NCBI GenBank assembly: GCA_013202965.1
Contig: JABMQZ010000106.1
Location: 3,315 to 67,314, forward strand
Direction of reading: 5' to 3'
DNA length: 64,000 nt
Source of the DNA: Bacteroidota bacterium
GTDB taxonomy: Bacteria > Bacteroidota > Bacteroidia > Bacteroidales > B18-G4
Below the pieces are notes generated by a model. That model saw nothing but the letters and a program-made list of their open reading frames with translations. It was not told the origin of the DNA and did no database searches. A program made the translations under genes and the position numbers. Below are positions 47,891 to 63,330 of the stretch, one piece after another (the first letter of the stretch is position 1; every line of letters starts with the position of its first letter).

Positions 47891-50800
47891 ATGGAAAAAC
47901 GAGATAGGCCGAACAAAGATTTGAAGCGATTGCAGGCGGAAGCCGGGGAGAGATTAAAAGAACTTGCTGCGATCAACCAGACCACACAGTTATTGAGTGA
48001 AGGCAAGACCGTTGAAGAAACCCTGGCCCGCATCGTTGATATTCTGCCACCGGCATGGCAATACCCGGAATATACAGTTGCACGCATAGTTTTTGGTAAA
48101 CTCATATTTACCAGTGCGAATTTCATGCCTACAAACTGGAAGCAGCAACAGGCTTTTGAAACCATCGATGGCATTAAAGGCTCTATTGAAATATTCTACA
48201 TACGGGAGTTCCCCGACCTGGATGAAGGCCCTTTCATGGCGGAAGAAAGACAGCTGATCAACAACCTTAGCGGCCTCATCACGGGATATCTTAACAGTCT
48301 GAAGGGGCGTACACTCTTAAAAGAAGAAAAAGACATTCCCGGAAAGAAAAGTCCGGATATCTTGCCAGACAAACCTCAGGTCTATAGTCGTCAGCTGCTT
48401 CAAAAGTTTCTTAATAAAAATAACTACGACCGTGATATCTACCACGACCTTATGCCATTTAAGGTCAAAGAGATCCTCCTGGTTGCCAACCTATATGATG
48501 CATACAGCATTGAAAAGGAAGGCCGGTTTTCGGAGCACGTCCTGGGTGAATATCATCAGCTGAGCCTGACTTCAATTCCAAGGATCACCGGTGTTTCAAA
48601 TGAACAGGAGGCGATGGAGCAATTGCGTTCCAAACATTTTGACCTCGTGATACTGATGATGGGTGCTGACAAGAAATCTCCCATTGGATTGAGCTGCCGG
48701 ATCAAGAAGGAATATTCATATATCCCTGTATTCCTTTTGCTGAATAATAACAGTGACATAGAGTACATATCACGGCGAAAAGCTTCCACCAAACATATTG
48801 ACAAAGTATTTGTCTGGAACGGAGAATCAAAGGTATTCTTTGCCATGATCAAGCATGTGGAGGACAGCATCAATGTTGAGAATGATACCAATATTGGCAT
48901 GGTACGGGTGATATTGCTGGTGGAAGATTCCCCTAAGTATTATTCCAGGTATCTCCCCATGCTGTACAATATCGTGCTGGAGCAAACCAGACATATCATT
49001 GATGACGTCAGCACCGATGAATTATACAAGGTTCTCAAACTCAGGGCAAGGCCAAAAATATTGCTGGCTTCCAATTACGAGGAAGCTGTTGATATCATTG
49101 ATAAATACAAAGACTATCTCCTGTGTCTTATCACGGATGTGAAGTTCGAAAGGAATGGAAAAGAAGAACCCCAGGCAGGCCTGGATCTGGTGAAATATTT
49201 AAGGGAAAATACCAGGCATCTGCCCATCATCATACAGTCATCTGAGGAAGCCAATGCAGATAAAGCGTATAAACTGAAATCTACTTTTATCAATAAGAAT
49301 TCTGAAAGTCTTTCACAGGATTTTAAGAGTTTTATTACACATTATCTCGGCTTTGGTAATTTTATTTACCGCAACGATAAAGGACAGGTTATTGCTGTGG
49401 CAAAATCGCTTAAAGAATTTGAGAGGTTGCTTAAAACCATTCCGGATGAATCGCTTATCCATCATGCAAGAAAAGATCAGTTCTCCTTATGGTTGATGGC
49501 CAGGGGAGAGATACAGGCAGCCAAGATCCTTAGCCCGCATAAAGTCACTGATTTCGGAAGTCCACAGAAGATCAGGGAATATCTGCTTGAGATTATCTCC
49601 AAGTTCAGGAATGAGCAGGAGAGGGGCAAAATCGTTCCCTTTGAAAAATCGGCCATCACCGACGATTCCAATATTGTTGCACTGATGGAGGGTTCCCTTG
49701 GAGGAAAAGGCCGGGGAATCGCCTTCATCAATACCTTGATCTATAATTATGATTTCAGTCAGCAACTCCCCGGCATTCATATAAAAGCTCCGAAAACAGT
49801 TTTAATAGGCACCGAAGAGTTTGAATATTTCATGGAACGAAATGGCCTGACAGAATTGATCTTAAATGAAAAAGATTATTCAAAGATCAAAAAGGCATTT
49901 CTCAAGTCCCGCCTTACAGAAACCATGATCAAAAGATTAAAGATGGTGCTCGTCGATTTCAAAAAACCGATCGCCATAAGGTCATCCGGACTGTTTGAGG
50001 ATTCGCTGATGCAGCCATTTGCCGGAATATTTGAAACTTTTCTTTTGCCAAACAGCCACCCCGATCCCAAAGTGCGCCTGCAGCAGGCCATGGATGCCAT
50101 AAAAATGGTATATGCCAGTGTGTATTCAGAAATGGCCCGCGGCTATGTGGAAGCCGTCCATTATAAGATCGAAGAGGAAAAGATGGCTGTGGTCATTCAG
50201 GAAGTTGTAGGAAATCAGTATGATCATTACTTTTACCCGCATATCAGTGGTGCAGCCCAGTCATTTAATTATTACCCGGTATCGCACATGAAACCTGAAG
50301 AGGGATTTGTTGTAGCCGCTGTCGGACTGGGAAAATACGTTGTGGAGGGTGAAAAAGCATTCCGTTTTTCTCCAAAGTATCCTGAAATAGAGATCAACAG
50401 CCCCAAAGACCAGTATAAAAACTCACAGCTGCAATTTTTTGCTGTCGACCTGGAGAAAAAAGAACCGAATCTCCTGGAAGGCGATATCGCAGGACTGGCC
50501 CGGCTGGATATAGATGAAGCGGAAAAACAGGGAACCCTCAAACATTGCGCTTCTGTTTATAATCCCGATAATGACCAGATTCTGCCGGGGCTGACCCATC
50601 CCGGCCCACGCATTGTGAATTTTGCCAATATCCTTAAATATAAGTATATTCCACTTGCGCAAACGATCGAAGTTGTCCTTGATGTCGTGAAAGAAGCACT
50701 GGGATCTCCTGTGGAAATTGAATTTGCTGTCGACCTGAACAAAGATAAAAACGGACTGGCATCTTTTTACCTCTTACAGATCAAACCACTGCTCGGGAGT

Positions 50801-51349
50801 GCATCCGACTATAATGTCAATCTGGATAAGATCAAAAAGGAAAGTATTCTGATGTATTCCGAAAAAGGGATGGGCAATGGTATCATTGAGGATATCGAAG
50901 ATGTGATTTATGTTGATCAGTCGACTTTCGATAAAGCGGATACTGTCGAAATTGCGGAGGAAGTGAACAAACTGAATACCTTGATGGTTGCTGATAAGCG
51001 GAAATATATTCTGATTGGGCCGGGCCGTTGGGGAACACGTGACCGCTGGATCGGGATACCTGTCAACTGGCCTCAGATCTCAAATGCAGGCATCATCATT
51101 GAAACAAGTCTTGAAGATTTTCCATTGGATGCTTCTTCAGGATCACACTTTTTTCACAATGTCACCTCCATGAACGTCGGATATTTCTCTGTTCAGCCTG
51201 AGTTCGCGAACAGCTACATCAGGTATGATATTCTTGCCGGGCAGAAACTGATCAGTGAAATGAAATACGTGAAGCATATTCGTTTCAAAAAGCCATTGAA
51301 AGTCAGGATGGATGGAAAAAAACGGATTTCAGTGATCACCCTTGAATGA
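47891..51349 (+). CDS. Multidomain protein: N-terminal sensor-like domain + two receiver-like domains + PEP/pyruvate-binding (PPDK_N ATP-grasp) domain + conserved C-terminal domain
   Basis: Sensor-like part: LKELAAINQ...ILPPAWQYPEYTVARIVFG...IEIFY...DEGPFMAEERQLINNL. REC-like parts: KEILLVANLYD... and RVILLVEDSPKY... ATP-grasp signature: GSLGGKGRGIAFIN...IRSSGLFED. No phosphohistidine TSHAA-type motif was seen. Confidence 0.65.
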   Translation: MEKRDRPNKDLKRLQAEAGERLKELAAINQTTQLLSEGKTVEETLARIVDILPPAWQYPEYTVARIVFGKLIFTSANFMPTNWKQQQAFETIDGIKGSIEIFYIREFPDLDEGPFMAEERQLINNLSGLITGYLNSLKGRTLLKEEKDIPGKKSPDILPDKPQVYSRQLLQKFLNKNNYDRDIYHDLMPFKVKEILLVANLYDAYSIEKEGRFSEHVLGEYHQLSLTSIPRITGVSNEQEAMEQLRSKHFDLVILMMGADKKSPIGLSCRIKKEYSYIPVFLLLNNNSDIEYISRRKASTKHIDKVFVWNGESKVFFAMIKHVEDSINVENDTNIGMVRVILLVEDSPKYYSRYLPMLYNIVLEQTRHIIDDVSTDELYKVLKLRARPKILLASNYEEAVDIIDKYKDYLLCLITDVKFERNGKEEPQAGLDLVKYLRENTRHLPIIIQSSEEANADKAYKLKSTFINKNSESLSQDFKSFITHYLGFGNFIYRNDKGQVIAVAKSLKEFERLLKTIPDESLIHHARKDQFSLWLMARGEIQAAKILSPHKVTDFGSPQKIREYLLEIISKFRNEQERGKIVPFEKSAITDDSNIVALMEGSLGGKGRGIAFINTLIYNYDFSQQLPGIHIKAPKTVLIGTEEFEYFMERNGLTELILNEKDYSKIKKAFLKSRLTETMIKRLKMVLVDFKKPIAIRSSGLFEDSLMQPFAGIFETFLLPNSHPDPKVRLQQAMDAIKMVYASVYSEMARGYVEAVHYKIEEEKMAVVIQEVVGNQYDHYFYPHISGAAQSFNYYPVSHMKPEEGFVVAAVGLGKYVVEGEKAFRFSPKYPEIEINSPKDQYKNSQLQFFAVDLEKKEPNLLEGDIAGLARLDIDEAEKQGTLKHCASVYNPDNDQILPGLTHPGPRIVNFANILKYKYIPLAQTIEVVLDVVKEALGSPVEIEFAVDLNKDKNGLASFYLLQIKPLLGSASDYNVNLDKIKKESILMYSEKGMGNGIIEDIEDVIYVDQSTFDKADTVEIAEEVNKLNTLMVADKRKYILIGPGRWGTRDRWIGIPVNWPQISNAGIIIETSLEDFPLDASSGSHFFHNVTSMNVGYFSVQPEFANSYIRYDILAGQKLISEMKYVKHIRFKKPLKVRMDGKKRISVITLE

Positions 51350-51703: not shown

Positions 51704-52564
51704 ATGTATGAACTGATCTCTCTCAAGCTGAAATGCCCTGTTTGCGGGGAGTCGCTGATGGATGACAGCCACCTTGTCGACAATGAAACCAGTATTATGC
51801 TGAATGTGGAAATGGCTGGAAAGAAAGGCGAGATCCGGCTGAGCTCAATATATGGCAGCTATAACTATGTTACGGATGTAGAGATGCCTAAGGGAGAAGT
51901 TGCTAAATTCAGTTGCCCTCACTGTAAAACACAAATTACCTCGGACTCAGAATGCCTTTCCTGTGGTGCCAACATGGTACCCTTTTACCTTGACATGGGA
52001 GGGAAGGTCACGATTTGCTCAAGAAGTGGCTGTAAAAATCATATCGTCGAGTTTGAAGACCTCTCGATTGCATTGAAAAAACTCTACCAGGAATACGGGC
52101 TGGCCGGCAAGGATGACTTCAAGCCTGAGCGTAAAATCACTCCGGTTGAGCAAGCGGTTGATGAAAATAAGGAAATCATCGAATCAGGAACATTTCTGAA
52201 TGCCTATTGCCCGCATTGCGATAAGAGCCTCCTGGAAGATGGCATGCTCAAACTGAAAATCCACAATGGTGAAGAAGGCTTCCTGATGCTCAGCCCATAT
52301 CTGAACGTATTTACCTCCAAGTCGACTATTTTTCTTGCCGAAGAAAAAACTGTTAAGGATATACGTTGCTGCCATTGTAACCAAAGCCTGATCTCTGCAG
52401 ATAAAACATGTGAAAAATGCGACTCTTCAGTGGCAAAGATCGCTATTGGAGCCAGAACAAAACTGATCGATTTCTATATCTGTACAAAGAAAGGTTGCCG
52501 CTGGCATGGCCTCAGTTCGGATGACTTGATTGATATCCGCCTGCAGGACAGCCTTGAGTGGTAA
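51704..52564 (+). CDS. Cys-rich protein made of two copies of an 8-Cys/1-His CxxC module (paralogue 1), function unknown
   Basis: Module 1: C11xxC14...C71xxC74-x9-C84xxC87-x17-C105x4C110xxH113. Module 2: C169xxC172...C222xxC225-x10-C236xxC239-x20-C260x4C265xxH268. Paralogues lie at 59776 and at the N-terminus of the 61501 ORF. Confidence 0.8.
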   Translation: MYELISLKLKCPVCGESLMDDSHLVDNETSIMLNVEMAGKKGEIRLSSIYGSYNYVTDVEMPKGEVAKFSCPHCKTQITSDSECLSCGANMVPFYLDMGGKVTICSRSGCKNHIVEFEDLSIALKKLYQEYGLAGKDDFKPERKITPVEQAVDENKEIIESGTFLNAYCPHCDKSLLEDGMLKLKIHNGEEGFLMLSPYLNVFTSKSTIFLAEEKTVKDIRCCHCNQSLISADKTCEKCDSSVAKIAIGARTKLIDFYICTKKGCRWHGLSSDDLIDIRLQDSLEW

Positions 52565-52567
52565 GTT

Positions 52568-53962
52568 CTACCATTCACCACTTGTAAGATATTCATGAAT
52601 TCCTTTTGCTGCGGTTTTACCAGCACCCATTGCTAATATTACAGTTGCTGCGCCGGTTGCAACATCACCCCCGGCAAAAACACCTCTTTTTGTAGTTTTA
52701 CCTGTTTGCAGATCGGTAACAATGGTTTCTTTTCTTGTGATTTCCAGGTCTGGTGTAGTAGCCGGAATTAATGGATTGGGGCTGTTACCGATAGCAATAA
52801 TTACAATATCTACAGGTATTTTAATATTTGAGCCATCAATAGGAACAGGCCTTCTTCTGCCCGAATCATCCGGTTCGCCAAGTTCCATCCTGATACATTC
52901 AGCTTCTTTTACCCATCCGTTTTCGCCATGAAAAGCAATCGGGTTGGTTAATAGCTGAAAATTAACACCTTCTTCTTCGGCATGGTGAATTTCCTCATTC
53001 CTGGCAGGCATCTGCTCTTTTGCACGGCGATAAATCAATATGGATTCTTCCGCACCAAGACGTAGGGCAGTCCTCGCACAATCCATGGCTACATTGCCTC
53101 CGCCAACTGTGGCAACTCTTTTCCCTTTTGCAATGGGGGTTTTGTATTTCGGGAATAAATAAGCTTTCATCAAATTTGCCCTGGTAAGGTATTCATTGGC
53201 AGAATAAAGTCTGTTTAGGTTCTCACCCGGAATTCCCATAAACCAGGGTAAACCGGCACCTGTGCCAAGAAAAATTGCATCGTATTCCTCCAGTAATTCA
53301 TCAAGGCTTTTGATCATGCCGATCACTGTATCCGTATGTAATCTAACCCCCATTTTAGAAAGAAAGTCGATCTCTTTGAATACAATTGCTTTGGGAAGTC
53401 TGAATTCGGGTATTCCATACACCAGCACACCACCCGGCTCATGCAGGGCCTCAAAAATTTCAACCGTGTGCCCAAATCTAACCAGGTCTGCTGCTGCAGT
53501 GATACCAGCAGGACCGGCACCAACAACAGCCACTTTCTTTCCTGTGGATTTTGGCAGTACCGGTATTTCTATTTCAATATTTTCTCTTTCCCAATCTGCC
53601 AGGAAACGTTCTAACCTGCCAATAGCAACAGGCTCATATTTCTTCCCCAGGATGCATTCTCTTTCACACTGTTCTTCCTGAGGGCAAACCCGCCCACAGA
53701 TAGCCGGTAAGATATTTTTCTCCTTTAACCTGACAATCCCCTCTTTGAATTTTTTTTCAGCTATAAAACCTATAAAACCTGGAATATCTATTTCTACCGG
53801 ACAACCATCGACACATAATGGCTTTTTGCACTGAAGACAACGATGTGCTTCTGCTATGGCTTCTTCAGGGGAATAACCATAAGGAACCTCATTGAAGTTT
53901 TTAATCCGTTCTTCCGGTGGTTGCTCACGCATGGGATTTTTATTTGGAATAATCTTACCCAT
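52568..53962 (-). CDS. GltD/NfnB/SudA-like NAD(P)H oxidoreductase subunit (2x[4Fe-4S] + FAD + NAD(P)H)
   Basis: RCLQCKKPLCVDGCPVEIDIPGFI, CGRVCPQEEQCE, VAVVGAGPAGITAA and VFAGGDVATGAATVILAMGAGK. Confidence 0.85.
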   Translation of the reverse strand: MGKIIPNKNPMREQPPEERIKNFNEVPYGYSPEEAIAEAHRCLQCKKPLCVDGCPVEIDIPGFIGFIAEKKFKEGIVRLKEKNILPAICGRVCPQEEQCERECILGKKYEPVAIGRLERFLADWERENIEIEIPVLPKSTGKKVAVVGAGPAGITAAADLVRFGHTVEIFEALHEPGGVLVYGIPEFRLPKAIVFKEIDFLSKMGVRLHTDTVIGMIKSLDELLEEYDAIFLGTGAGLPWFMGIPGENLNRLYSANEYLTRANLMKAYLFPKYKTPIAKGKRVATVGGGNVAMDCARTALRLGAEESILIYRRAKEQMPARNEEIHHAEEEGVNFQLLTNPIAFHGENGWVKEAECIRMELGEPDDSGRRRPVPIDGSNIKIPVDIVIIAIGNSPNPLIPATTPDLEITRKETIVTDLQTGKTTKRGVFAGGDVATGAATVILAMGAGKTAAKGIHEYLTSGEW

Positions 53963-53963
53963 A

Positions 53964-54779
53964 TCACAACCTTTCTTTTGATATTATTTCTTCTTCAATG
54001 TATGCTTTCCTTCGGTCAAGAACGATATCCCAGTTTATCTTGTGACCATCGAAATGAGGGCCGTCAACACAGGCAAATTTTGTTTCTCCACCTACCTCAA
54101 GCCTGCAGGCACCACACATACCGGTTCCATCTATCATAACAGGATTCATGCTAACAATGGTATTAATACCATAAGGCTTGGTAGTATGGGCTATCTTGTA
54201 CATCATATAAGTACAGCCAACTGCAAAAACCATATCATAATATTCTCCCGATTCCAGGTTCTCTTTTAGCAGGTCATGTGAATGACCTTTTGAGCCGAGA
54301 GATCCGTCAGTTGTACTGTAACGAACTTCATCAGCCACAGATTCAAGTTTTTCATTCCAGTATAGAAGAAACCGGCTTCTGGCCTCCGAATAGCAAACAA
54401 CCTTGTTACCACATTCTTTCAAAGCTTTAGCCAAAGGATATATCGCACCGATTCCATAACAACCTCCAACTAAACCGACAGTTCCGTATTTTTTTATTTC
54501 AAAAGATCTTCCAAGCGGGCCGGTGAATGAAAAAATCTCATCACCGGTATTTAATGCAGCCAGGCTTTGGGTTCCTGCACCAATCTCAAGAAAAAGGATG
54601 CTGATTGTTCCTTGTTCATTATCCCAATCAGCAATGGTAATAGGGATGCGTTCAGCATATTTGTCCGGAATAACAATAACAAATTGACCCGCCCTGGCCT
54701 TCTTTGCAATATCCGGTGCCGCAACAATAAACTCATGGATATTTGGGACAATATGCTCTTTATGTAAAATCTTAACCAT
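53964..54779 (-). CDS. NfnA/SudB/PyrK-like FAD/NAD-binding subunit with C-terminal [2Fe-2S]
   Basis: GQFVIV...RIPITIAD, GPLG, LVGGCYGIGAIYP and GTGMCGACRLEVGGETKFACVDGP. Confidence 0.85.
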   Translation of the reverse strand: MVKILHKEHIVPNIHEFIVAAPDIAKKARAGQFVIVIPDKYAERIPITIADWDNEQGTISILFLEIGAGTQSLAALNTGDEIFSFTGPLGRSFEIKKYGTVGLVGGCYGIGAIYPLAKALKECGNKVVCYSEARSRFLLYWNEKLESVADEVRYSTTDGSLGSKGHSHDLLKENLESGEYYDMVFAVGCTYMMYKIAHTTKPYGINTIVSMNPVMIDGTGMCGACRLEVGGETKFACVDGPHFDGHKINWDIVLDRRKAYIEEEIISKERL

Positions 54780-57129
54780 GTTTCCCTCCTTTTTTATCGA
54801 TAAGCTGTTTCATGTCAGGGATTAGTTTTGACATGGAATTCCCCTGATAGAGAAAATAATCTGGTTCGGGAATCATTTCTATTTTACGCTTCTTCAATGG
54901 AATTTTAATATCAGGCATGGATAACACAAATTTTGATGTTTTCCTGCTGGTTTTATCAATTGACAAATCGAGCTTAGCCGTAATTTCCTCATATATTTCA
55001 TTCGTTTTTCTATACTGAAAGCTTTTATTTTTGAGTTTTCGACTTATATTAGAAAGTATTTGCCATGTTGGCTTTATGAATTCAGGTGCATGAACAGCCG
55101 GATTTATCTGTTTTAAATTTCTTTCAATATTAATAATATGACCATTTGATTCAGTAAAACAATATGCAGGTAATAAGATATCAGCATATTTGGATGTTTC
55201 GGTTATGAACATATTCTGCTGAACAAAAAATTCAAGTTCATTCAATTTTTCATGATCCGGCAGATCACCTTTGAGGAATAATGATTTAAAATTATTCCCC
55301 GGAAGATTACTTATCATTTCATCAGTTGATAATCCTGATACAGGTGAAATATCTATACCCCAAGCCTCTGACCATTTTTTTTCCCCATTTCTGACTTCCA
55401 GAAATCCGGGTAAATATTCCGGGTGCATACCGGTGTAAGTGGCTCCAAAACGATTTCCGTCGTCAACCAAAAACATCATCCCGCAATCAGCGAATTTATT
55501 TAAGGCAAAATGGATATTTGAAAGTAAATTAAAATTATCATTACTTGATGACGATTTAAACAAGGTATCACCTGCAATTATCAGTATTTTTTTTGCTGGT
55601 GCAAGCGATTCGATGATTTTCCTGATCTGTGCCTGTTTGATGCCTGTTGCCGTGGATGCATGTTTTTTATCAATAAGCTTTAAAGCATCGGATATGTCTT
55701 TAGGGAATTTAATGTTTTGCGCGGTCTTGAGGTCTTTTAGTATCTGAAGAAGAAAAATATTTTCTGAGCCCGGATGATATATTATCCGTTCATTCGAAAA
55801 CTGGTATGTTCTGTTTAAATGGGAATGAGCCGTAATAATTTTAGCATCATGATGATATGCTTTCCTGACCCTGTTTTCTATTATGGGATGTGATACCGAA
55901 GCGTTTGATCCAATTATAAAAATAGCGTCAAATCCAATAATTTCATCAATTCCGACAGGCTGAAACCCATGTACTTTTTTAAACAGAGATCGGTCATTGT
56001 AAGTGGGGGAAAGGTCTATATTGTTAGATCCCATAACTACTCTGCAAAATTTTTGCAATGCATAGGAGTTTTCAATCGTATCGTGGGCAGAACCGATTAT
56101 TCCAAAATCATTTCCACTGAATTCTTTAAAATGTTTTGTTATAATATCGATGGCCTGATCCCAGGTTATTTCAAGCCAGGCGCCATTTTTATTGATAAGG
56201 GGTTTTATGATTCGTTCCGGGTGATGTGTAATATCTGCCGGTATAAATTTCCCGCGGATGCATAATTGATCCGGTTCGGTCCTTTTTCCCGGCCTGGGAC
56301 CGATGTTAACAATCCGGTTGCCTTTTGTGTTGATGTTCATCCTGCAACCTACAGAACAAAGTATACATGTAGATGTTGTTGAATCGGTCGGGACACCTAC
56401 CCAACTGCCCATTTTTTCAGAAAGGGAACCAGTAGGGCATACATCTACACATGCACCACAATATTCACAACCTGCTTCTATTTGGGATTCACCAAAAGCA
56501 GTGCCAACCAGGGTAGAATTACCACGCTGCACAAAAGCCAGAACCCCGCTATATCTTTCTTCATTACATATTCTAACACATCTGCCGCAAAGGATACATA
56601 AATTATAATCCAAATCGTAAAAGGGATTATTCTTGATGGCTTGAACATTTCGATAGGTTATGGGGAACCTGATATCTTTTAGGTCAAGATATTCAACCAG
56701 GTCCTGTAGCTCACAACCTCCATTGCTTGTGCAGAAGTTACAACCGGTAGTAACAGTAACCTTTCTTGTGGTATACATGAAATCCTGACATTCCTTTTTA
56801 TCGTTGCATATCAGGCATGAATATGGATGTTCCGAAAGAATGAGCTCAAGAATTTCACGTCTGATGGATTGCAACTCAGGAGATTTAGTGCTTATTTCCA
56901 TCTCATTGGTGACCGGAGTTGTACATGCGGTTGGATAACCTATCATGTTTTTTATCTCCACAATACATAAACGGCACCCACCATAGCTTTTCAAACCTTT
57001 AAGATAACAAAGGGTGGGAATATATATCCCTGCGGACGTAGCCGCATCCAGTACCGTTGAACCTTCAGGAACCTGAATTTGTTTCCCGTCGATTTCAACT
57101 GAAATATATATACCCTTATCTGATTTCAT
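54772..57129 (-). CDS. NuoG-like Fe-S subunit with a molybdopterin-oxidoreductase-fold domain that looks catalytically degenerate
   Basis: N-terminal 2Fe-2S ferredoxin fold (TLCYLKGLKSYGGCRLCIVEI), HPYSCLICNDKKECQ, CILCGRCVRIC, CEYCGACVDVCPTG and Molybdop_Fe4S4 (CILCSVGCRMN...LCIRGKF). No H-cluster motif. No Cys/Sec-His at the FDH active-site position (it reads NNIDLSPTYND). Confidence 0.75.
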   Translation of the reverse strand: MKSDKGIYISVEIDGKQIQVPEGSTVLDAATSAGIYIPTLCYLKGLKSYGGCRLCIVEIKNMIGYPTACTTPVTNEMEISTKSPELQSIRREILELILSEHPYSCLICNDKKECQDFMYTTRKVTVTTGCNFCTSNGGCELQDLVEYLDLKDIRFPITYRNVQAIKNNPFYDLDYNLCILCGRCVRICNEERYSGVLAFVQRGNSTLVGTAFGESQIEAGCEYCGACVDVCPTGSLSEKMGSWVGVPTDSTTSTCILCSVGCRMNINTKGNRIVNIGPRPGKRTEPDQLCIRGKFIPADITHHPERIIKPLINKNGAWLEITWDQAIDIITKHFKEFSGNDFGIIGSAHDTIENSYALQKFCRVVMGSNNIDLSPTYNDRSLFKKVHGFQPVGIDEIIGFDAIFIIGSNASVSHPIIENRVRKAYHHDAKIITAHSHLNRTYQFSNERIIYHPGSENIFLLQILKDLKTAQNIKFPKDISDALKLIDKKHASTATGIKQAQIRKIIESLAPAKKILIIAGDTLFKSSSSNDNFNLLSNIHFALNKFADCGMMFLVDDGNRFGATYTGMHPEYLPGFLEVRNGEKKWSEAWGIDISPVSGLSTDEMISNLPGNNFKSLFLKGDLPDHEKLNELEFFVQQNMFITETSKYADILLPAYCFTESNGHIINIERNLKQINPAVHAPEFIKPTWQILSNISRKLKNKSFQYRKTNEIYEEITAKLDLSIDKTSRKTSKFVLSMPDIKIPLKKRKIEMIPEPDYFLYQGNSMSKLIPDMKQLIDKKGGKHG

Positions 57130-57161
57130 GTTATTTATTATGACAGTTTAATCATAGATTA

Positions 57162-59030
57162 TTAAGATACTATTATAATTGCATCGCCGGCGATAGCATC
57201 AAACCTGCAAATTTCATAACAGGCCCTGCATTTAATACACTTTTCAGGATCAAGGTTATGTGGTTCGCTTCTGGGGCCTGTAATAGCACCGGTCGGACAA
57301 ACTTCCACACAGCGCTGACAACCTGTACATTTCTCCTTTATCACCCTGTATTCCACCAGGTCGCGACAAACTGCCGCAACACAACGTTTGTCTTCAATAT
57401 GTTCTTGATATTCACGGTAAAAATATTTAAGTGTTGTGAGAACCGGGTTGGGAGCAGTTTGTCCTAAGCCGCAAAGAGATCCGTTTTTTACGGTTTTTGC
57501 AATATTTTCAAGTGTTGCAAGGTCATCGATGCTTCCAGTGCCTTTTGTGAATTTCTCAAGTATCTCTACCATCCTTTTGGTTCCGATACGGCATGGCGTG
57601 CATTTGCCACAACTTTCTTTACTGGTAAAATTTAAAAAATACTTGGCCACATCCACCATGCATGAATTTTCGTCCATAACGATCAATCCACCTGAACCCA
57701 TAATCGATCCGGCCTCAGAGAGTGATTCATAATCGATAGGCAGATCAATATGTTCTTCGGTCAGGCAACCACCTGAAGGCCCTCCGGTTTGAACAGCCTT
57801 AAAAGGTTTTATTGTCCCCCCTCCAATATCATAAATTATTTCACGCAATGTAATACCGAGAGGAACTTCAATTAATCCTGTACGCCTTACCTTTCCGACA
57901 AGGGCAAATGTTTTAGTTCCTTTGCTGTTTGCGGTTCCATACTGATTGTACCAGTCACCACCATTTCTCAGAATATTTGGGATTGTTCCCAGGGTTTCAA
58001 CATTATTGATTGTTGTTGGATTACCATTCAATCCTGATAAAGTCGGATATGGTGGCCTGCTTCTGGGCATGCCCCTTTCTCCTTCAATAGAGGCGATCAA
58101 TGCAGTTTCTTCACCACAAACAAAAGCACCTGCCCCTTCTTTAAGTTTTATTTCAAGATTGAATCCGCTATCAAGAATATTCCTGCCAAGTAATCCGGCC
58201 TGTTTCATCTGGGCAATAGCAATGTTAAGTCGTTCAATCGCCAGGGGATACTCGGCCCTGATATAAATGTATGCCTGGTTTGCACCTAAAGCATAAGCTG
58301 CAATGATCATGCCCTCAAGCAATGCAAAAGGATCTCCTTCTATAAGGGATCTGTTCATGAAAGCTCCCGGATCACCTTCATCAGCATTGCATATCAGATA
58401 TTTTATCTTTCCTTTAGCTTCCCGGCAGAATTGCCATTTTTTGTATGTTGGGAATCCGGCACCACCTCTTCCTCTTAAGCCGGATATCCTTATTTCTTCA
58501 ATTACTTCTTCCGGTCCTTTTTCAAAGGCATTGATCAGCCCTGAAAAACCATCCCTTGCAATGTAATGCATGATGTTTTCAGGATCAACAATGCCACAAT
58601 TCCGTAGTACAATACGTTTCTGGTATTTCAGCATAGGAAGTTCCCAGAATGATTTTGTGCCATTAATTGTTTCGATTCCATCACCCAGGTGCGCCAAAGG
58701 TTTGAGTTTGGATTCATCACTGAAGGCAAACTCTTTGATGATCTTTTTAGCCCTGTCAGCATCAACATTATTAAAAGTAAAACGCGATGATCCGGGTTTT
58801 TGGACATCGAGCAAAGGTTCAAAATAACACGGTCCGATACACCCCACTTTTATGGTTTGGAACTTATATTTTGAATTATCCTTGATTTTCTGAATGCTTT
58901 TCCAGACATCACCTGCTCCTGATGCCAATCCGCAAGTTCCCATGCCAACATACACTACCGGATCGGAACTATGCTGAAGCATTTCCCATTGTTCTTGTGC
59001 GGTTTTTTGCAGCTGTTCAAAATCATTCAT
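57162..59030 (-). CDS. NuoF/HydB-like NADH-binding flavoprotein with extra Fe-S domains (Bfu-type B subunit)
   Basis: GLRGRGGAGFPTYKKW, NADEGDPGAF and ESCGKCTPCRIGT. The N-terminal thioredoxin-like region has GTCGLASG...GCIGPCY. The C-terminal region has CTGCQRCVEVCPTG and CIKCRACYEIC. Confidence 0.9.
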   Translation of the reverse strand: MNDFEQLQKTAQEQWEMLQHSSDPVVYVGMGTCGLASGAGDVWKSIQKIKDNSKYKFQTIKVGCIGPCYFEPLLDVQKPGSSRFTFNNVDADRAKKIIKEFAFSDESKLKPLAHLGDGIETINGTKSFWELPMLKYQKRIVLRNCGIVDPENIMHYIARDGFSGLINAFEKGPEEVIEEIRISGLRGRGGAGFPTYKKWQFCREAKGKIKYLICNADEGDPGAFMNRSLIEGDPFALLEGMIIAAYALGANQAYIYIRAEYPLAIERLNIAIAQMKQAGLLGRNILDSGFNLEIKLKEGAGAFVCGEETALIASIEGERGMPRSRPPYPTLSGLNGNPTTINNVETLGTIPNILRNGGDWYNQYGTANSKGTKTFALVGKVRRTGLIEVPLGITLREIIYDIGGGTIKPFKAVQTGGPSGGCLTEEHIDLPIDYESLSEAGSIMGSGGLIVMDENSCMVDVAKYFLNFTSKESCGKCTPCRIGTKRMVEILEKFTKGTGSIDDLATLENIAKTVKNGSLCGLGQTAPNPVLTTLKYFYREYQEHIEDKRCVAAVCRDLVEYRVIKEKCTGCQRCVEVCPTGAITGPRSEPHNLDPEKCIKCRACYEICRFDAIAGDAIIIVS

Positions 59031-59475
59031 AATTACTCAAAATCTGACGTAGTTTAATAACCGACAATCTGCTGTGTATATCGTTATCAACCATCATTAC
59101 CGGTGCAATGGCACAACATCCCAAACATGCAACCCTTTCAAGATCAAATCTGCCGTCTTCCGTAGTACTACCGGGTGTTATCCCAATTTCCATCTGTAAT
59201 GCACTCAGTATAAAATCCCCACCCTGAACATGACAGGCTGTTCCCAGGCAGATCTTTATCGAATGTCTGCCGGGTGGATTAAACTTGAATTGAGAGTAAA
59301 AAGTGGCAACACCATAAATTGTGCTACAGGATATATTCAAATATTCGGAAATTTCTCTAATGGTGTTAGATGGAATATATCCTTCCTGATGCTGAACATG
59401 TTGAAGAATAGGAATCAGGTCTCCTTTACTGCATTCAGGAAAGTGTTTACCAAGCGTATTTAACAAACTGCTCAT
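59023..59475 (-). CDS. NuoE/HydC-like thioredoxin-fold [2Fe-2S] subunit
   Basis: CLGTACHVQGG...CLGCCAIAPVMMV. It overlaps the NuoF-like gene by 8 nt. Confidence 0.9.
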   Translation of the reverse strand: MSSLLNTLGKHFPECSKGDLIPILQHVQHQEGYIPSNTIREISEYLNISCSTIYGVATFYSQFKFNPPGRHSIKICLGTACHVQGGDFILSALQMEIGITPGSTTEDGRFDLERVACLGCCAIAPVMMVDNDIHSRLSVIKLRQILSNYE

Positions 59476-59775: not shown

Positions 59776-60630
59776 ATGGACGATATTCTAAATGATTTTA
59801 TTTTTTTACGGGTAAAATGCCCGATCTGTGATCATTCCCTTATGGATCAGGAAAACTATGTTGATGGTAAACCGGGAATTAAATTGTTTGTTGAATCTGC
59901 AGAGAATAAAGGAATTATCGTATTGAGTGCTATTTATGAAAGTTATAATTACAGGTGTGATATTCCGATCGAAAGTGGTGATATAGTTACTTTCTCCTGT
60001 CCGCATTGCGGGAAAGTAATTACAAGTAAAACCGAATGCGAATATTGTGAAGCAGCTATGGTACCTCTTGAACTGGATATTGGAGGAAAGGCAAGCATTT
60101 GCTCAAGAAGTGGTTGTAAAGGGCATTTCCTGGAATTTGAAGATGTCTTGCTTGCTTTTAATAAGCTTTACCAGCTTGGTGATTATAAAGGTTCAATTCC
60201 GGAAGGATTAAAAGAAAACGGAGAATCAACAGAAATTATTAAAACAGGGACTTTCCTTAATCCCTATTGTCCGAAATGCAATAAGTCTCTTATAAAAGAT
60301 GGATTGATCACACTGAAAATCATTAACGACAGGAATGAGGAAGGTCTTGTGTTTCTAAGCCCATTCCTGAATGTGTTCACTTCCAGGTCAACAGTATTTT
60401 TAAAGGAGGATCAAACAGTTAAGGATATTATCTGCACCCATTGCAATACAAGTATAATCGATTTAGACAGGAATTGTGAACAATGCGGATCACCTGTCGC
60501 TAAAATAAAAGTGAGTGCCCGCACCAAATTCATCGACTTTTATATATGTTCAAAAAAAGGATGCAGGTGGCATGGGCTGAGTAATGAAGATCTTCATGAA
60601 ATTGATCTTGAAGACAGTATGGAATGGTAA
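59776..60630 (+). CDS. Cys-rich double CxxC-module protein (paralogue 2), function unknown
   Basis: Same motif spacing as paralogue 1: C15xxC18...C75xxC78-x9-C88xxC91-x17-C109x4C114xxH117, and C165xxC168...C220xxC223-x10-C234xxC237-x20-C258x4C263xxH266. About 55% identical by eye, with the same C-terminal DS(L/M)EW. Confidence 0.8.
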   Translation: MDDILNDFIFLRVKCPICDHSLMDQENYVDGKPGIKLFVESAENKGIIVLSAIYESYNYRCDIPIESGDIVTFSCPHCGKVITSKTECEYCEAAMVPLELDIGGKASICSRSGCKGHFLEFEDVLLAFNKLYQLGDYKGSIPEGLKENGESTEIIKTGTFLNPYCPKCNKSLIKDGLITLKIINDRNEEGLVFLSPFLNVFTSRSTVFLKEDQTVKDIICTHCNTSIIDLDRNCEQCGSPVAKIKVSARTKFIDFYICSKKGCRWHGLSNEDLHEIDLEDSMEW

Positions 60631-60664
60631 ATAATGATATTGAGGAAAGATAAAAAAAGTAGAT

Positions 60665-61489
60665 ATGTTTCAGATAAAGAAAAAAGAAACAATGGCAAAG
60701 GGGACGATCGTTAGATTTGATATTGATGCCCCTAAAATTGCAAAAAAGTTAAAACCGGGACAATTTGTCATTATCAGGGTAAATGAGACAGGAGAAAGAA
60801 TTCCTCTAACAGTTGCCGATAAGGATGCATTTGCAGGGATCATAACTATTATCTTTCAGGTTGTCGGGAAAACAACTGCATTGATGAGATCGCTCAATGA
60901 GGGCGATTTTTTATTGGATGTTGTCGGGCCATTAGGTAAACCAGCAGAAGTTGATAATATTGGTACTGTTTTAATGGTTGGCGGAGGTACGGGTGTGGCA
61001 ATTCTTCATCATGTGGCAAAAGCATTTCATGAAGCAGGAAATTATGTTATCGGTATTATGGGTGCCAAGGAAAAAGATATGCTCATCCTTGAAAATGAAA
61101 TGATAGCCATATGCGATGACCTTGTTGTTACAACTGATGACGGGAGTTATGGGGAAAGAGGATTTGTTACCCAGCCACTTGAGAAATACCTGAATGAACG
61201 TCATGATATAAAATTGGTTTATACCATTGGTCCGATTATTATGATGAAGAATGTTGTGAAGCTGACAAAAAAGTTTAATGTTCCGACTTTAGTTAGCTTA
61301 AATCCTATTATGATAGATGGAACAGGTATGTGTGGAGGCTGCAGGGTAAAGGTGAATAACGAAACCAAGTTCTGTTGTGTTGACGGTCCCGACTTTGATG
61401 GTTACCAGGTTGACTTTGATGAATTGCTTAAAAGGAATTCGATGTATTTACAGGATGAGAAAGATTCATTGTTGTTTTCAATCAAGTAA
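60665..61489 (+). CDS. Second NfnA/PyrK-like FAD/[2Fe-2S] subunit
   Basis: GQFVIIRVNETGERIPLTVAD, GPLG, MVGGGTGVAILH and GTGMCGGCRVKVNNETKFCCVDGP. An alternative start exists at 60692. Confidence 0.85.
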   Translation: MFQIKKKETMAKGTIVRFDIDAPKIAKKLKPGQFVIIRVNETGERIPLTVADKDAFAGIITIIFQVVGKTTALMRSLNEGDFLLDVVGPLGKPAEVDNIGTVLMVGGGTGVAILHHVAKAFHEAGNYVIGIMGAKEKDMLILENEMIAICDDLVVTTDDGSYGERGFVTQPLEKYLNERHDIKLVYTIGPIIMMKNVVKLTKKFNVPTLVSLNPIMIDGTGMCGGCRVKVNNETKFCCVDGPDFDGYQVDFDELLKRNSMYLQDEKDSLLFSIK

Positions 61490-61500
61490 AACGAAGAAAT

Positions 61501-63330
61501 ATGTTAGAACAGGATATAAGATATTTAAAGTATAAAACCTATTTAAGTTTTTACTGCCCGCATTGTAGCAACACCTTCAATGTGGAAAGGGCACATGAAA
61601 AGTCATTGATATTCAATGCAAAATGGAAAAATGAAGACCTGGTGTTGAAGCTCAGTCCTTTTCTCGATGTTTTTGATATTAAAACATCTATTGAAATGCC
61701 ACAGGATGAGGTTCTGGATGATCTGTTCTGCCCGCATTGTAAGCAAAGTATTATTGATCCTCATGTTCATTGCGATGAATGTGGTTCCAAGGTCGGTAAA
61801 GCAATAGTATCAGCATATGCCAAGCTCATTCCGTTTTATTTTTGTTTGAAAAATGGATGTGAATGGCACGGCATTACAAAAGAGGACGAAAAGAAAATCA
61901 AGTTAAAAATTCCTCGTCAGCTTATGCCTGAGCAGGATCAGAAATTAAGGGTTAATAATTTTCAGGAAGTACCCTATGGTTATACTACCGAACTGGCAAT
62001 GCTTGAAGCCGGCAGATGCCTTCAGTGTAAAAAACCGAAGTGTGTTGAAGGATGCCCTGTAAATATTGACATACCCGGATTTATTGAATTAATAACCCAG
62101 GAGAAATTTACTGAGGCAGTACACAAAATTAAGGAAACCAACGTTTTTCCGGCAATTTGCGGACGTGTCTGCCCCCAGGAATCCCAGTGTGAAGTATTAT
62201 GTATTCTTGGTAGAAAAGATGAACCCGTAGCCATAGGTCGATTGGAACGTTTTGTTGCAGACTATGAAAGGAAAATGGATCTGGTTGAAATACCTGAAAT
62301 TAAAAAAAATACAGGTAAGAAGATAGCTGTTATCGGTTCAGGCCCTGGTGGTTTAACAGTTGCTGCCGATATGCGTATGCTTGGCTATGAGGTTACCATT
62401 TTTGAAGCCCTGCATGAATCAGGTGGAGTATTAACGTATGGTATTCCTGAATTCAGGCTTCCCAAATCAATTGTGCAATCTGAAATTGATTATTTAATAA
62501 AACTGGGTGTCAGGATAGAACTGAATCATATCATTGGGAATATCCTTACGGTTGATGAACTACTTGAACATTTTGACGCAGTTTATATTGGTGTAGGTGC
62601 AGGATTGCCCTGGTTTATGAGCCTTGAAGGTGAAAGCCTGGGGAATGTATTCTCGGCCAATGAATATCTCACCCGTATGAACCTGATGAAAGCCTATAAA
62701 TTTCCCGAGTATGACACACCTATGCCACATGGCAATCATATTGCCGTGATCGGTGGCGGAAATGTGGCCATGGATTGTGCCAGAACGGCAAAGCGTACCG
62801 GTGCATCAGAAGTGACTATCGTATACCGAAGATCACGCCATGAATTACCGGCCAGGACCGAAGAAGTGCACCATGCAGAAGAAGAAGGTATAAATTTTAA
62901 GCTTCTTACATCTCCTACCCGGTATATCGGCACAGACTCAAGTATAATCAAGTCCATAGAATGTATTAGAATGGAACTTGGCGAACCAGATGCTTCAGGA
63001 AGAAGAAGACCGATACCTATTGAGGGTTCCAACTTTATCATGGATTGCGATATGGCAATTGTTGCCATAGGAAACGGTCCCAATCCGATATTGTTCCAGT
63101 CAACTCCGGATTTAAAACTTAATAAAAGGGGCTATATCGAAGTAAATCCTGATACTATGGAAACCTCCAAAGAGTTTGTATATGCCGGCGGCGATATTGT
63201 AACCGGAGCTGCTACCGTTATTCTGGCAATGGGTGCCGGAAGGATCGCTGCCACAGCTATGCATAAAAAGCTGACAGCCATACAGGAGAAGGCGAAAAAG
63301 AAGGTGGTGCCTAAGAAGAAAAGCGAATAG
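61501..63330 (+). CDS. Fusion protein: single CxxC module (aa ~15-125) + GltD/NfnB-like oxidoreductase (aa ~145-609)
   Basis: N-terminal module: C19xxC22...C77xxC80-x10-C91xxC94-x20-C115x4C120xxH123, which has module-2 spacing. LSPFLDVFDIKTSI and FYFCLKNGCEWHG align with the free paralogues. The rest is NfnB-like: RCLQCKKPKCVEGCPVNIDIPGFI, IAVIGSGPGGLTVA and YAGGDIVTGAATVILAMGAG. Confidence 0.85.
   Translation: MLEQDIRYLKYKTYLSFYCPHCSNTFNVERAHEKSLIFNAKWKNEDLVLKLSPFLDVFDIKTSIEMPQDEVLDDLFCPHCKQSIIDPHVHCDECGSKVGKAIVSAYAKLIPFYFCLKNGCEWHGITKEDEKKIKLKIPRQLMPEQDQKLRVNNFQEVPYGYTTELAMLEAGRCLQCKKPKCVEGCPVNIDIPGFIELITQEKFTEAVHKIKETNVFPAICGRVCPQESQCEVLCILGRKDEPVAIGRLERFVADYERKMDLVEIPEIKKNTGKKIAVIGSGPGGLTVAADMRMLGYEVTIFEALHESGGVLTYGIPEFRLPKSIVQSEIDYLIKLGVRIELNHIIGNILTVDELLEHFDAVYIGVGAGLPWFMSLEGESLGNVFSANEYLTRMNLMKAYKFPEYDTPMPHGNHIAVIGGGNVAMDCARTAKRTGASEVTIVYRRSRHELPARTEEVHHAEEEGINFKLLTSPTRYIGTDSSIIKSIECIRMELGEPDASGRRRPIPIEGSNFIMDCDMAIVAIGNGPNPILFQSTPDLKLNKRGYIEVNPDTMETSKEFVYAGGDIVTGAATVILAMGAGRIAATAMHKKLTAIQEKAKKKVVPKKKSE
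61555..61869 (+). other. Extent of the CxxC module (first Cys to the conserved His) inside the fusion ORF
   Basis: Coordinates derived from residue numbers C19 to H123 of the 61501 ORF. Confidence 0.7.

Follow-up and report, generated by a model that had tools for sequence, protein, structure and literature searches.

Do the three genes of a BfuABC-type electron-bifurcating core and the two genes of an NfnAB (NfnSL) pair, encoded one after the other in an uncultured bacterium, specify two enzymes or one? The question is raised by a stretch of 64,000 nucleotides (nt), hereafter the window (contig JABMQZ010000106.1 of assembly GCA_013202965.1, positions 3,315 to 67,314 of the forward strand), from a 93%-complete genome of an uncultured sediment Bacteroidales. 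In the open reading frame (ORF) list of the window, five co-oriented ORFs occupy the minus strand from 59475 to 52568, and their coordinates and identities agree with those of a first reading made from the letters alone (the sequence-only reading), which had described an operon coupling NuoE/F/G-like subunits to an NfnA/NfnB-like pair. We propose that the five genes encode one soluble complex, BfuCBA-NfnSL (Nfn-BfuABCSL in Adams-lab style), and put the probability of this reading at about 75%. One complex is considered probable because the gene order is conserved, BfuA is fused to NfnA in relatives, StnC offers a precedent, a dedicated BfuA subtype precedes NfnAB, and the block seems to be inherited as a unit. 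The genes and a candidate promoter element are as follows.

59023..59475, minus strand: bfuC, NuoE/HydC/StnA-like, 150 amino acids (aa), a thioredoxin-like [2Fe-2S] protein
57162..59030, minus strand: bfuB, NuoF/HydB/StnB-like, 622 aa
54772..57129, minus strand: bfuA, NuoG/FdsA-like, 785 aa
53964..54779, minus strand: nfnA (nfnS), PyrK-like, 271 aa
52568..53962, minus strand: nfnB (nfnL), GltD-like, 464 aa
59501..59507, minus strand: TAATTTG, candidate Bacteroidota-type -7 promoter element read from the sequence, 26-32 nt upstream of the bfuC start codon

The sequence-only reading had reported 8-nt overlaps of one type at two junctions and had taken them to imply a stoichiometric complex. Both overlaps exist: the bfuC stop and the bfuB start share ATGAATGA (59030..59023), and the bfuA stop and the nfnA start share ATGGTTAA (54779..54772). 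The second contains a TAA stop and is not of the ATGA type. Compact operons often contain overlaps of 4-8 nt, which show operon membership, not a stoichiometric complex; for the latter, overlap alone is insufficient, and the support comes instead from the BfuA::NfnA fusions described below. The bfuB/bfuA gap is 32 nt and the nfnA/nfnB gap is 1 nt. An AT-rich spacer of ~300 bp upstream of bfuC is common to the operon and a divergent plus-strand gene, and a convergent gene ends 3 nt past the nfnB stop. The -7 promoter consensus of Bacteroidota/Bacteroides is TAnnTTTG; the TAATTTG upstream of bfuC fits this consensus and is a candidate promoter element of the five-gene operon. A scan for sigma-70 promoters and terminators gave results at chance level and is uninformative for Bacteroidota. 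Judged by their sequence, the five genes form one compact predicted transcription unit.

A BfuA profile search of ~186,000 species-representative genomes found 402 that encode this BfuA type, and the best 80 loci were examined. The order E-F-G-NfnA-NfnB is kept in 43 of the 46 loci with full flanks on both sides, and NfnA and NfnB directly follow BfuA in 49 of the 51 loci having at least 2.4 kb of downstream sequence, L042 and L006 being the ones that deviate. Between BfuA and NfnA, the median gap is 1 nt, and the genes overlap in 25 of 62 pairs. The hosts are mostly Bacteroidota, and the cluster also occurs in Desulfobulbales (Desulfocapsaceae/Desulfobulbaceae), Planctomycetota (Planctomycetia), Chloroflexota (Anaerolineae), Gemmatimonadota, and Bathyarchaeia. 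The sequence-only reading had suggested looking for the same five-gene synteny in other genomes, and it is found in six or more phyla.

The cluster is patchily distributed in its own lineage: 2 of the 16 species in the genus have it, as do 4 of the 23 in the family, and it is absent from all 38 other families of the order. In a BfuB tree, the Desulfobulbales sequences nest inside a Bacteroidota clade. Taken together, these observations fit the transfer of the block as a unit. In the same tree, the B subunits of the fused Stn/Nfn-Bfu type (three references and five Bacteroidales sequences) form one supported clade, and the BfuB of the window lies outside it. BfuB of the split type is not monophyletic and falls into at least three clades. 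Since the split type occurs in several clades and the root of the tree is insecure, resting on one very long HoxF branch, we infer nothing from it about which of the two arrangements, split or fused, is ancestral.

The most direct link between the two modules comes from natural fusions. We searched for proteins of 581-1848 aa that contain an NfnA-like region and obtained 1155 matches at E<=1e-20, of which the best 120 all combine NuoG-type domains with the NfnA iron-sulfur domain (BfuA::NfnA). In one locus (L086), the order is NuoE - NuoF - BfuA::NfnA (1131 aa) - NfnB, and in two others (L087, L088) it is NuoE - NuoF::GltD (1039 aa) - BfuA::NfnA (829 aa) - NfnB. Residues 26-763 of the 1131-aa fusion (P0229) are colinear with the whole BfuA of the window (E 1e-128) and keep its duplicated Cys motif, and residues 855-1119 match the whole NfnA of the window with 52% identity. 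The fusion thus joins the same two genes, in the same order, as the 8-nt overlap pair of the window. These fusions support a predicted common particle of BfuA and NfnA and are the strongest available evidence for it, far better than the overlaps.

Some loci show further domain changes. In L086 (9405-12884), NfnB has an extra DRTGG domain and is followed by an HATPase_c protein and a [FeFe]-hydrogenase-like protein (Fe_hyd_lg_C); the latter two genes resemble a hydrogen-sensing regulatory pair. In L014 (6612-9731), L076, and L087 (2849-5968), BfuB is enlarged to ~1040 aa, with GltD-like Fer4_20 and Pyr_redox_2 domains in place of the C-terminal 2x[4Fe-4S] domain. These ~1040-aa variants still precede BfuA (or BfuA::NfnA) and NfnB, and may carry a further site of the pyridine-nucleotide type and possibly no ferredoxin site.

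We next consider the modules themselves, with domains assigned to all five proteins by Pfam and NCBIfam profiles. BfuC matches PF01257 (E 3.6e-49), and its translation contains C76-x4-C81-x35-C117-x3-C121, the four-Cys [2Fe-2S] set that defines a BfuC. BfuB contains PF01512, PF10589, and two Fer4 domains, arranged as an N-terminal thioredoxin-like region, the domain for flavin mononucleotide (FMN) and NADH, a [4Fe-4S] site, a site of one His and three Cys, and a C-terminal 2x[4Fe-4S] ferredoxin-binding domain. Its closest solved relatives, all aligned end to end, are C. saccharolyticus NfnB (9bov_B, 743 bits), T. sibiricus NfnB (9n5u_B, 743 bits), and S. ovata StnB (8oh5_B, 732 bits). The B subunits of bifurcating NiFe- and FeFe-hydrogenases come next (712 bits for that of NiFe-HydABCSL from A. 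mobile), and complex I NuoF reaches about half the score.

The sequence-only reading had attributed to the NuoF-like subunit an extra N-terminal thioredoxin-like Cys region and a C-terminal 2x[4Fe-4S] domain, and had associated both with bifurcating Bfu enzymes rather than with complex I. Both features are present. The N-terminal region contains C33, C64, and C68 in the pattern of the C. saccharolyticus, T. sibiricus, and S. ovata NfnB/StnB proteins, and two CxxCxxCxxxC motifs occupy residues 568-578 (C568/571/574/578) and 598-608 (C598/601/604/608). The B1 cluster ligands are C474, C477, C480, and C520, and C457, H544, C550, and C555 form the B2 site. B2, the C-terminal B3/B4, and the N-terminal thioredoxin-like B5 are metal sites of BfuB that are absent from NuoF (PMC9304861), and the BfuB of the window has the ligands for all of them. 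The motifs DEGDPGAFM[DN]R and GAGAFVCGE, which include A202, M204, and F282 of the A. mobile protein, separate bifurcating from non-bifurcating homologues (PMC9304861 supplement). BfuB has DEGDPGAFMNR at 217-227 and GAGAFVCGE at 299-307, as well as a GGPSG loop at 416-420, and the two Bfu motifs occur in 74-75 of 75 BfuB orthologues. BfuB therefore has every published sequence hallmark of the bifurcating Bfu enzymes, and with these motifs and its Nfn-Bfu relatives the assignment to Bfu rather than to complex I holds.

The GltD-like and PyrK-like proteins, which the sequence-only reading had noted as separate genes, are true full-length NfnB and NfnA and not proteins of the Stn kind. NfnA matches NF004862 ('sulfide/dihydroorotate dehydrogenase-like FAD/NAD-binding protein', where FAD is flavin adenine dinucleotide) with 353 bits, and aligns over its full length with P. 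furiosus NfnI-S (5jca_S, 278 bits) and T. maritima NfnA (4ylf_A, 217 bits). The [2Fe-2S] ligands D217, C222, C225, and C237 are located in DGTGMCGACR...FACVDGP, and the Asp+3Cys motif is found in 60 of 61 NfnA orthologues. NfnA thus combines the FNR-like FAD/NAD(H) domain with the Asp+3Cys [2Fe-2S] site of an Nfn small subunit. In canonical Nfn, the small subunit carries the NAD(H) site.

NfnB scores 579 bits with TIGR01316 ('NADPH-dependent glutamate synthase' type), above the cut-off. Among solved structures, it is closest to T. maritima NfnB (4ylf_B, 610 bits) and P. furiosus NfnI-L (506 bits), and its scores with the GltD domains of the Nfn-Bfu/Stn proteins are no higher than 309-349 bits. 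The cluster ligands are C42/45/50/54 and C89/93/99/103, with Glu118 in GRLERF. Such a Glu is characteristic: the NfnB of the window shares LERF with T. maritima and P. furiosus NfnB/L, whereas the aligned fused proteins of C. saccharolyticus and T. sibiricus have LKRF, and in StnC the flavin-proximal [4Fe-4S] cluster is ligated by the strictly conserved Lys170, according to the Stn structure paper. All 46 pattern-matched NfnB orthologues of the five-gene clusters have Glu. NfnB also contains R188 within YGIPEFRLPK and a YRR motif at 311-313. R188 corresponds to the conserved Arg in EFRLPK of the Nfn large subunit; a contact with flavin N5 is not readable from sequence, and the equivalent Arg is also found in the non-bifurcating StnC. 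Two [4Fe-4S] clusters, one of them Glu-ligated, an FAD site with its Arg, and an NADPH site are thus predicted, as in an Nfn large subunit. The cofactor-binding motifs of both modules are all intact, and both modules look functional.

BfuA contains PF13510, PF10588, PF22117, PF04879, and PF00384, and Pfam gave no match to the cap domain PF01568. It has sites for one [2Fe-2S] and four or five [4Fe-4S] clusters and a degenerate molybdopterin domain. The ligands C41/52/55/69, H101/C105/C108/C114, C130/C133/C139, C178/181/184/188, C221/224/227/231, and C255/258/262/290 are invariant in 25 homologues, and the first two sets correspond to the A1 [2Fe-2S] and A2 clusters of the Bfu family. The best sequence match is the alpha subunit of NAD-dependent formate dehydrogenase. 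With Foldseek, the best matches are FdsA, NuoG, and HydA of NiFe-HydABCSL, confirming the FdsA/NuoG fold. Between BfuA and this HydA, E is 7e-57. Aligned with R. capsulatus FdsA (6tg9_A), BfuA reads SNNIDL------SPT and has lost the 'CARVCH' segment, the one with the Mo-ligand Cys and the catalytic His. A Cys after the NNxD motif is missing from 39 of the 42 orthologues scored and from the family consensus. Since the Mo-ligand segment is deleted and the cap domain is missing, BfuA has no catalytic site and is an iron-sulfur scaffold, as are NuoG, HydA of NiFe-HydABCSL, and the FdhF-like part of StnC.

This scaffold differs from NuoG, HydA, and FdsA in one respect. Those proteins have a single H-x3-C-x2-C-x5-C motif, whereas in BfuA the motif is doubled: H101/C105/C108/C114 is followed, after a 15-residue spacer, by C130/C133/C139. 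Both copies align to one and the same HydA segment, and the seven residues of the duplicated motif are invariant in the 25 homologues. By a strict pattern, the duplicated CxxCx5C motif with the 15-residue spacer is found in 64 of 73 BfuA orthologues; eight of the nine failing sequences, including those from Chloroflexota and Bathyarchaeia, have variants of it, and in the ninth the ORF is cut off earlier. The duplication marks precisely the BfuA subtype that precedes NfnAB. Proteins of the fused StnC type carry their GltD domain as an insertion exactly at the position of the second BfuA motif; the fused protein encoded elsewhere in the same genome reads H-YAD-C-IAP-C-QQT-C-P and then continues directly with the GltD cluster motif. 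Because relatives covalently attach their NADPH module at this point, the extra metal site of C130/C133/C139 is a natural candidate for docking or bridging NfnB.

How would such a complex work? Without an active site in BfuA, the Bfu core lacks a third substrate of its own and needs a partner. BfuC and BfuB would form the bifurcating core of the HydBC/StnAB type, with FMN, an NAD(H) site, and the ferredoxin-binding 2x[4Fe-4S] domain. BfuA, with its catalytically dead molybdopterin domain, would serve as an iron-sulfur 'wire' to which the complete NfnA/NfnB pair is attached, and NfnB would bring the NADP(H) site otherwise missing from the Bfu core, making NADP(H) the third substrate. A precedent is found in StnC/NfnA-Bfu, where the same scaffold receives electrons from a GltD/NfnB-like domain that is covalently inserted in it (PMC10482914). 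The five proteins would then be expected to co-purify, with NfnAB docked on BfuA, and electrons would pass between the [4Fe-4S] pair of NfnB and the BfuA chain, maybe via C130/C133/C139. The net reaction would be a ferredoxin-coupled NADH/NADPH transhydrogenation. In terms of classification, this would be a 'type 3' Bfu enzyme with NfnS/L in place of the NiFe small and large subunits of HydABCSL.

The sequence-only reading had counted two potential bifurcation sites, the FMN of the NuoF-like subunit and the L-FAD of NfnB. As an inventory of cofactors this count stands, and the working of both sites remains putative. It is conceivable, though we regard it as doubtful, that the crossed-potential FAD of NfnB and the FMN/[4Fe-4S]/[2Fe-2S] 'flavobicluster' of BfuBC act as two bifurcation centres in series. 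In such a path, the electrons of NADPH would be split at the NfnB flavin, and the high-potential electron would pass via NfnA to NAD+. The low-potential electron would enter BfuA instead of ferredoxin (Fd) and undergo a second split at BfuBC, to NAD+ and ferredoxin. By our arithmetic, the stoichiometry would be 4 NADPH + 3 NAD+ + 2 Fd(ox) = 4 NADP+ + 3 NADH + 2 Fd(red), a 'gear' of 4 NADPH : 3 NADH : 2 Fd that differs from the 2 : 1 : 2 of Nfn/Stn. With physiological potentials of -380 mV for NADPH and -280 mV for NADH (PMC9304861), the equilibrium potential of the last acceptor would come near -680 mV. If true, the series arrangement would be a generator of unusually low-potential reductant or, run in reverse, a transhydrogenase making NADPH at half the ferredoxin cost of Nfn/Stn. 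It would also explain why the genome keeps the five-gene operon next to the genes of a normal Stn-type enzyme.

That enzyme is encoded by a fused Stn/NfnABC-type operon on another contig of the same genome (G000:C119; L084 5978-12024, minus strand), whose products are NuoE-like (172 aa), NuoF-like (591 aa), and, as the third, a 1235-aa fusion of GltD and NuoG that has the Stn-type Lys (YLKRF). Since the organism has both systems, the five-gene operon is not simply a split Stn. 'Just a split Stn' was rejected as a full description of the operon on four counts: the Glu is of the Nfn type and not Lys, NfnA is present, BfuB lies outside the fused clade, and the fused operon exists separately. The co-existence of the two operons mildly suggests that their enzymes do not duplicate each other.

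The explanation that competes best with one complex is that two independent enzymes are co-transcribed under shared redox regulation, namely a free NfnAB and a BfuABC that has its partner elsewhere or is a plain NADH:ferredoxin oxidoreductase. We regard it as unlikely. NfnA and NfnB do look like complete canonical Nfn subunits, and in various organisms nfn genes have other redox enzymes as neighbours, among them a multimeric hydrogenase cluster (PMC6405883). Moreover, loci with similar BfuA, NfnA, and NfnB have BfuB of differing clades, as if the BC core had been swapped in evolution. On the other side, BfuA::NfnA fusions are abundant and keep the same operon order, BfuA has no catalytic site, and across the phyla NfnAB nearly always comes after the BfuA subtype with the duplicated Cys. 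The genome of the window offers no NfnAB-free context for the module, and no candidate for a third substrate adjoins it. The position of the pair behind BfuCBA and the fusions in relatives likewise argue against a free-standing NfnAB heterodimer.

Several observations weigh against a single complex, and some of them favour independent enzymes. In C. autoethanogenum, nfn lies beside a true multimeric [FeFe]-hydrogenase cluster and the two are treated as separate enzymes (PMC6405883), so that adjacency alone can mislead. The locus L006, from a Bacteroidales genome, tolerates a 5-kb insertion of unrelated genes for secreted proteins that separates BfuA from NfnA, and in the locus L042 no NfnB follows NfnA. 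All relatives found are metagenome-assembled genomes, none of them cultured. Among sequencing runs, no RNA runs with the locus were found; the DNA runs containing it are freshwater, sediment, and cold-seep metagenomes. In the AlphaFold2 model of BfuA, the predicted confidence score (pLDDT) is below 50 at the iron-sulfur region (residues 99-244), which gives the proposed docking site no geometric support. Finally, a second enzyme of the fused Stn type with an identical net reaction would be redundant, hinting that the reaction or stoichiometry given above differs.

The insertion in L006 (13080-17609) consists of three genes for proteins with PKD domains and type IX secretion C-terminal tails and two 100-aa ORFs, and is the sole interruption seen.

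Two further explanations fare much worse. It is highly improbable that the NuoEFG-like genes supply an 11-subunit complex I-like enzyme with the NADH-input (N) module that it lacks, a matter under debate for Bacteroidota and other anaerobes, with NfnAB as unrelated passengers. The degenerate molybdopterin domain does resemble that of complex I NuoG, many NuoG chains are among the sequence and fold matches, and a 'Nuo-Bfu' class has been predicted (PMC9304861). Against this, the genes lie outside any nuo operon, BfuB is nearest to Nfn-Bfu B subunits, and the conserved partners are NfnA and NfnB. The NuoH profile (PF00146) has no match in the 93%-complete genome of the window, and 11 of 14 control genomes score with it; with no NuoH, a complex I N-module is ruled out for this genome. 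A formate-dependent Fdh-Bfu would have an active molybdo/tungsto-pterin formate dehydrogenase as its large subunit. The best sequence and fold matches, to alpha subunits of NAD-dependent formate dehydrogenase, point that way, as does the name 'formate dehydrogenase alpha subunit' that JGI gives to several homologues. This reading can be dismissed because BfuA lacks the 'CARVCH' segment for the Mo-ligand Cys/SeCys and the catalytic His, 39 of 42 orthologues have no Cys after NNxD, and the PF01568 cap is missing.

With these alternatives weighed, the proposed BfuCBA-NfnSL complex can be compared with known systems. The closest is StnABC/NfnABC (Nfn-Bfu, type 1; S. ovata 8OH5, C. saccharolyticus 9BOV, T. 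sibiricus 9N5U), with which BfuC and BfuB are homologous end to end, sharing the BfuB ligands and motifs. Common to both are a NuoG-like scaffold with a dead FdhF-like domain and a GltD/NfnB-type FAD module that gives the NADP(H) site. The sequence-only reading had stated that in StnABC the GltD-like part is fused to the large subunit and that a PyrK-like subunit is absent, in agreement with the published structure (PMC10482914). Here, by contrast, the GltD module is a separate 464-aa protein, so that the operon departs from the three-subunit composition of type 1, and E118 stands in place of the type 1 Lys (K170 in StnC). NfnA, with its FAD and [2Fe-2S] sites, is present, whereas Stn has no NfnA homologue (PMC10482914). 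BfuA has the extra 3-Cys motif at the former insertion point, and BfuB lies outside the fused clade.

Compared with NfnAB/NfnSL (T. maritima 4YLF, P. furiosus NfnI 5JCA), both subunits are full length and close, with the diagnostic ligands intact. Canonical Nfn is a free heterodimer that passes low-potential electrons to soluble ferredoxin, whereas the pair studied here is encoded behind BfuCBA, and NfnA is fused to BfuA in many relatives of the operon. NiFe-HydABCSL of Acetomicrobium mobile (type 3, 7T2R/7T30) likewise has a BfuABC core, a BfuA without a catalytic site, and two extra subunits for the third substrate. In that enzyme the extra subunits are a [NiFe]-hydrogenase pair, whereas here they are NfnS/NfnL, a bifurcating enzyme in its own right. 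A proposed precedent for joining a Bfu core to a second flavin-based bifurcating module is Bam-Bfu (BamB-I benzoyl-CoA reductase), which contains HdrA (PMC9304861). It differs in having HdrA instead of NfnSL and another substrate, and its bifurcation is proposed, not demonstrated.

The 2022 classification of Bfu enzymes distinguishes twelve classes, of which the single NADP(H) class is the three-subunit fused type (PMC9304861). NfnSL and BfuABC figure as unrelated families and alternative solutions in the papers on the Stn and NfnABC structures and in one of 2026 from the same field, and the two types are nearly mutually exclusive in acetogens (PMC7483475). A 2019 review of Nfn lists four fusion patterns, none with Nuo-like proteins. 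No description of BfuABC with separate NfnA/NfnB or PyrK/GltD was found in the searchable full-text literature to October 2026, which leaves subscription-only papers outside. Each module is well known by itself, and the searchable literature gave no description of their union; in it, we found no already characterised enzyme to which the arrangement corresponds, an outcome that the sequence-only reading had named as refuting it.

A conserved, widespread operon with natural fusions clashes with the picture of NfnSL and BfuABC as separate alternatives. If the complex forms, it would be a new class in the Bfu family and a natural test of the chaining of two bifurcating centres, and would alter models of NADH, NADPH, and ferredoxin in sediment Bacteroidota, Desulfobulbales, Chloroflexota, Planctomycetota, and Bathyarchaeia. 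The operon also bears on annotation, in which the large subunit is routinely called 'formate dehydrogenase' or 'molybdopterin oxidoreductase' and NfnB 'glutamate synthase'.

The surroundings of the operon contain further Nfn-related genes. The divergent operon on the plus strand (59776-63330) encodes a Cys-rich protein of 284 aa with weak Pfam matches to double zinc ribbons, a second NfnA of 274 aa, and a second NfnB of 609 aa with a Cys-rich N-terminal extension of ~130 aa. Directly after nfnB, the convergent gene on the plus strand (51704-52564) encodes a 286-aa paralogue of the Cys-rich protein. Bacteroidota loci keep the convergent Cys-rich gene together with the divergent trio or a pair of NfnA2 and NfnB2 (513 aa), and the loci of other phyla are without these genes. 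In the related Bacteroidales loci L006, L007, L013, and L072, a fused Stn-type operon immediately adjoins the five-gene island.

Large proteins with receiver-like domains and a PPDK_N domain (pyruvate phosphate dikinase ATP-binding) adjoin both NADPH-linked operons of the genome: one of 1152 aa lies beside the island (window 47891-51349, plus strand), and one of 995 aa directly follows the fused Stn-type operon (L084 2934-5921, minus strand). They may be a shared regulator or partner of both operons. Also present in the genome are genes for a NAD-linked [NiFe]-hydrogenase of the Hox type (G000:C253; L085 4128-8694, minus strand), with a 600-aa HoxE-F fusion, a 232-aa HoxU-like protein, and small and large subunits of 182 and 483 aa.

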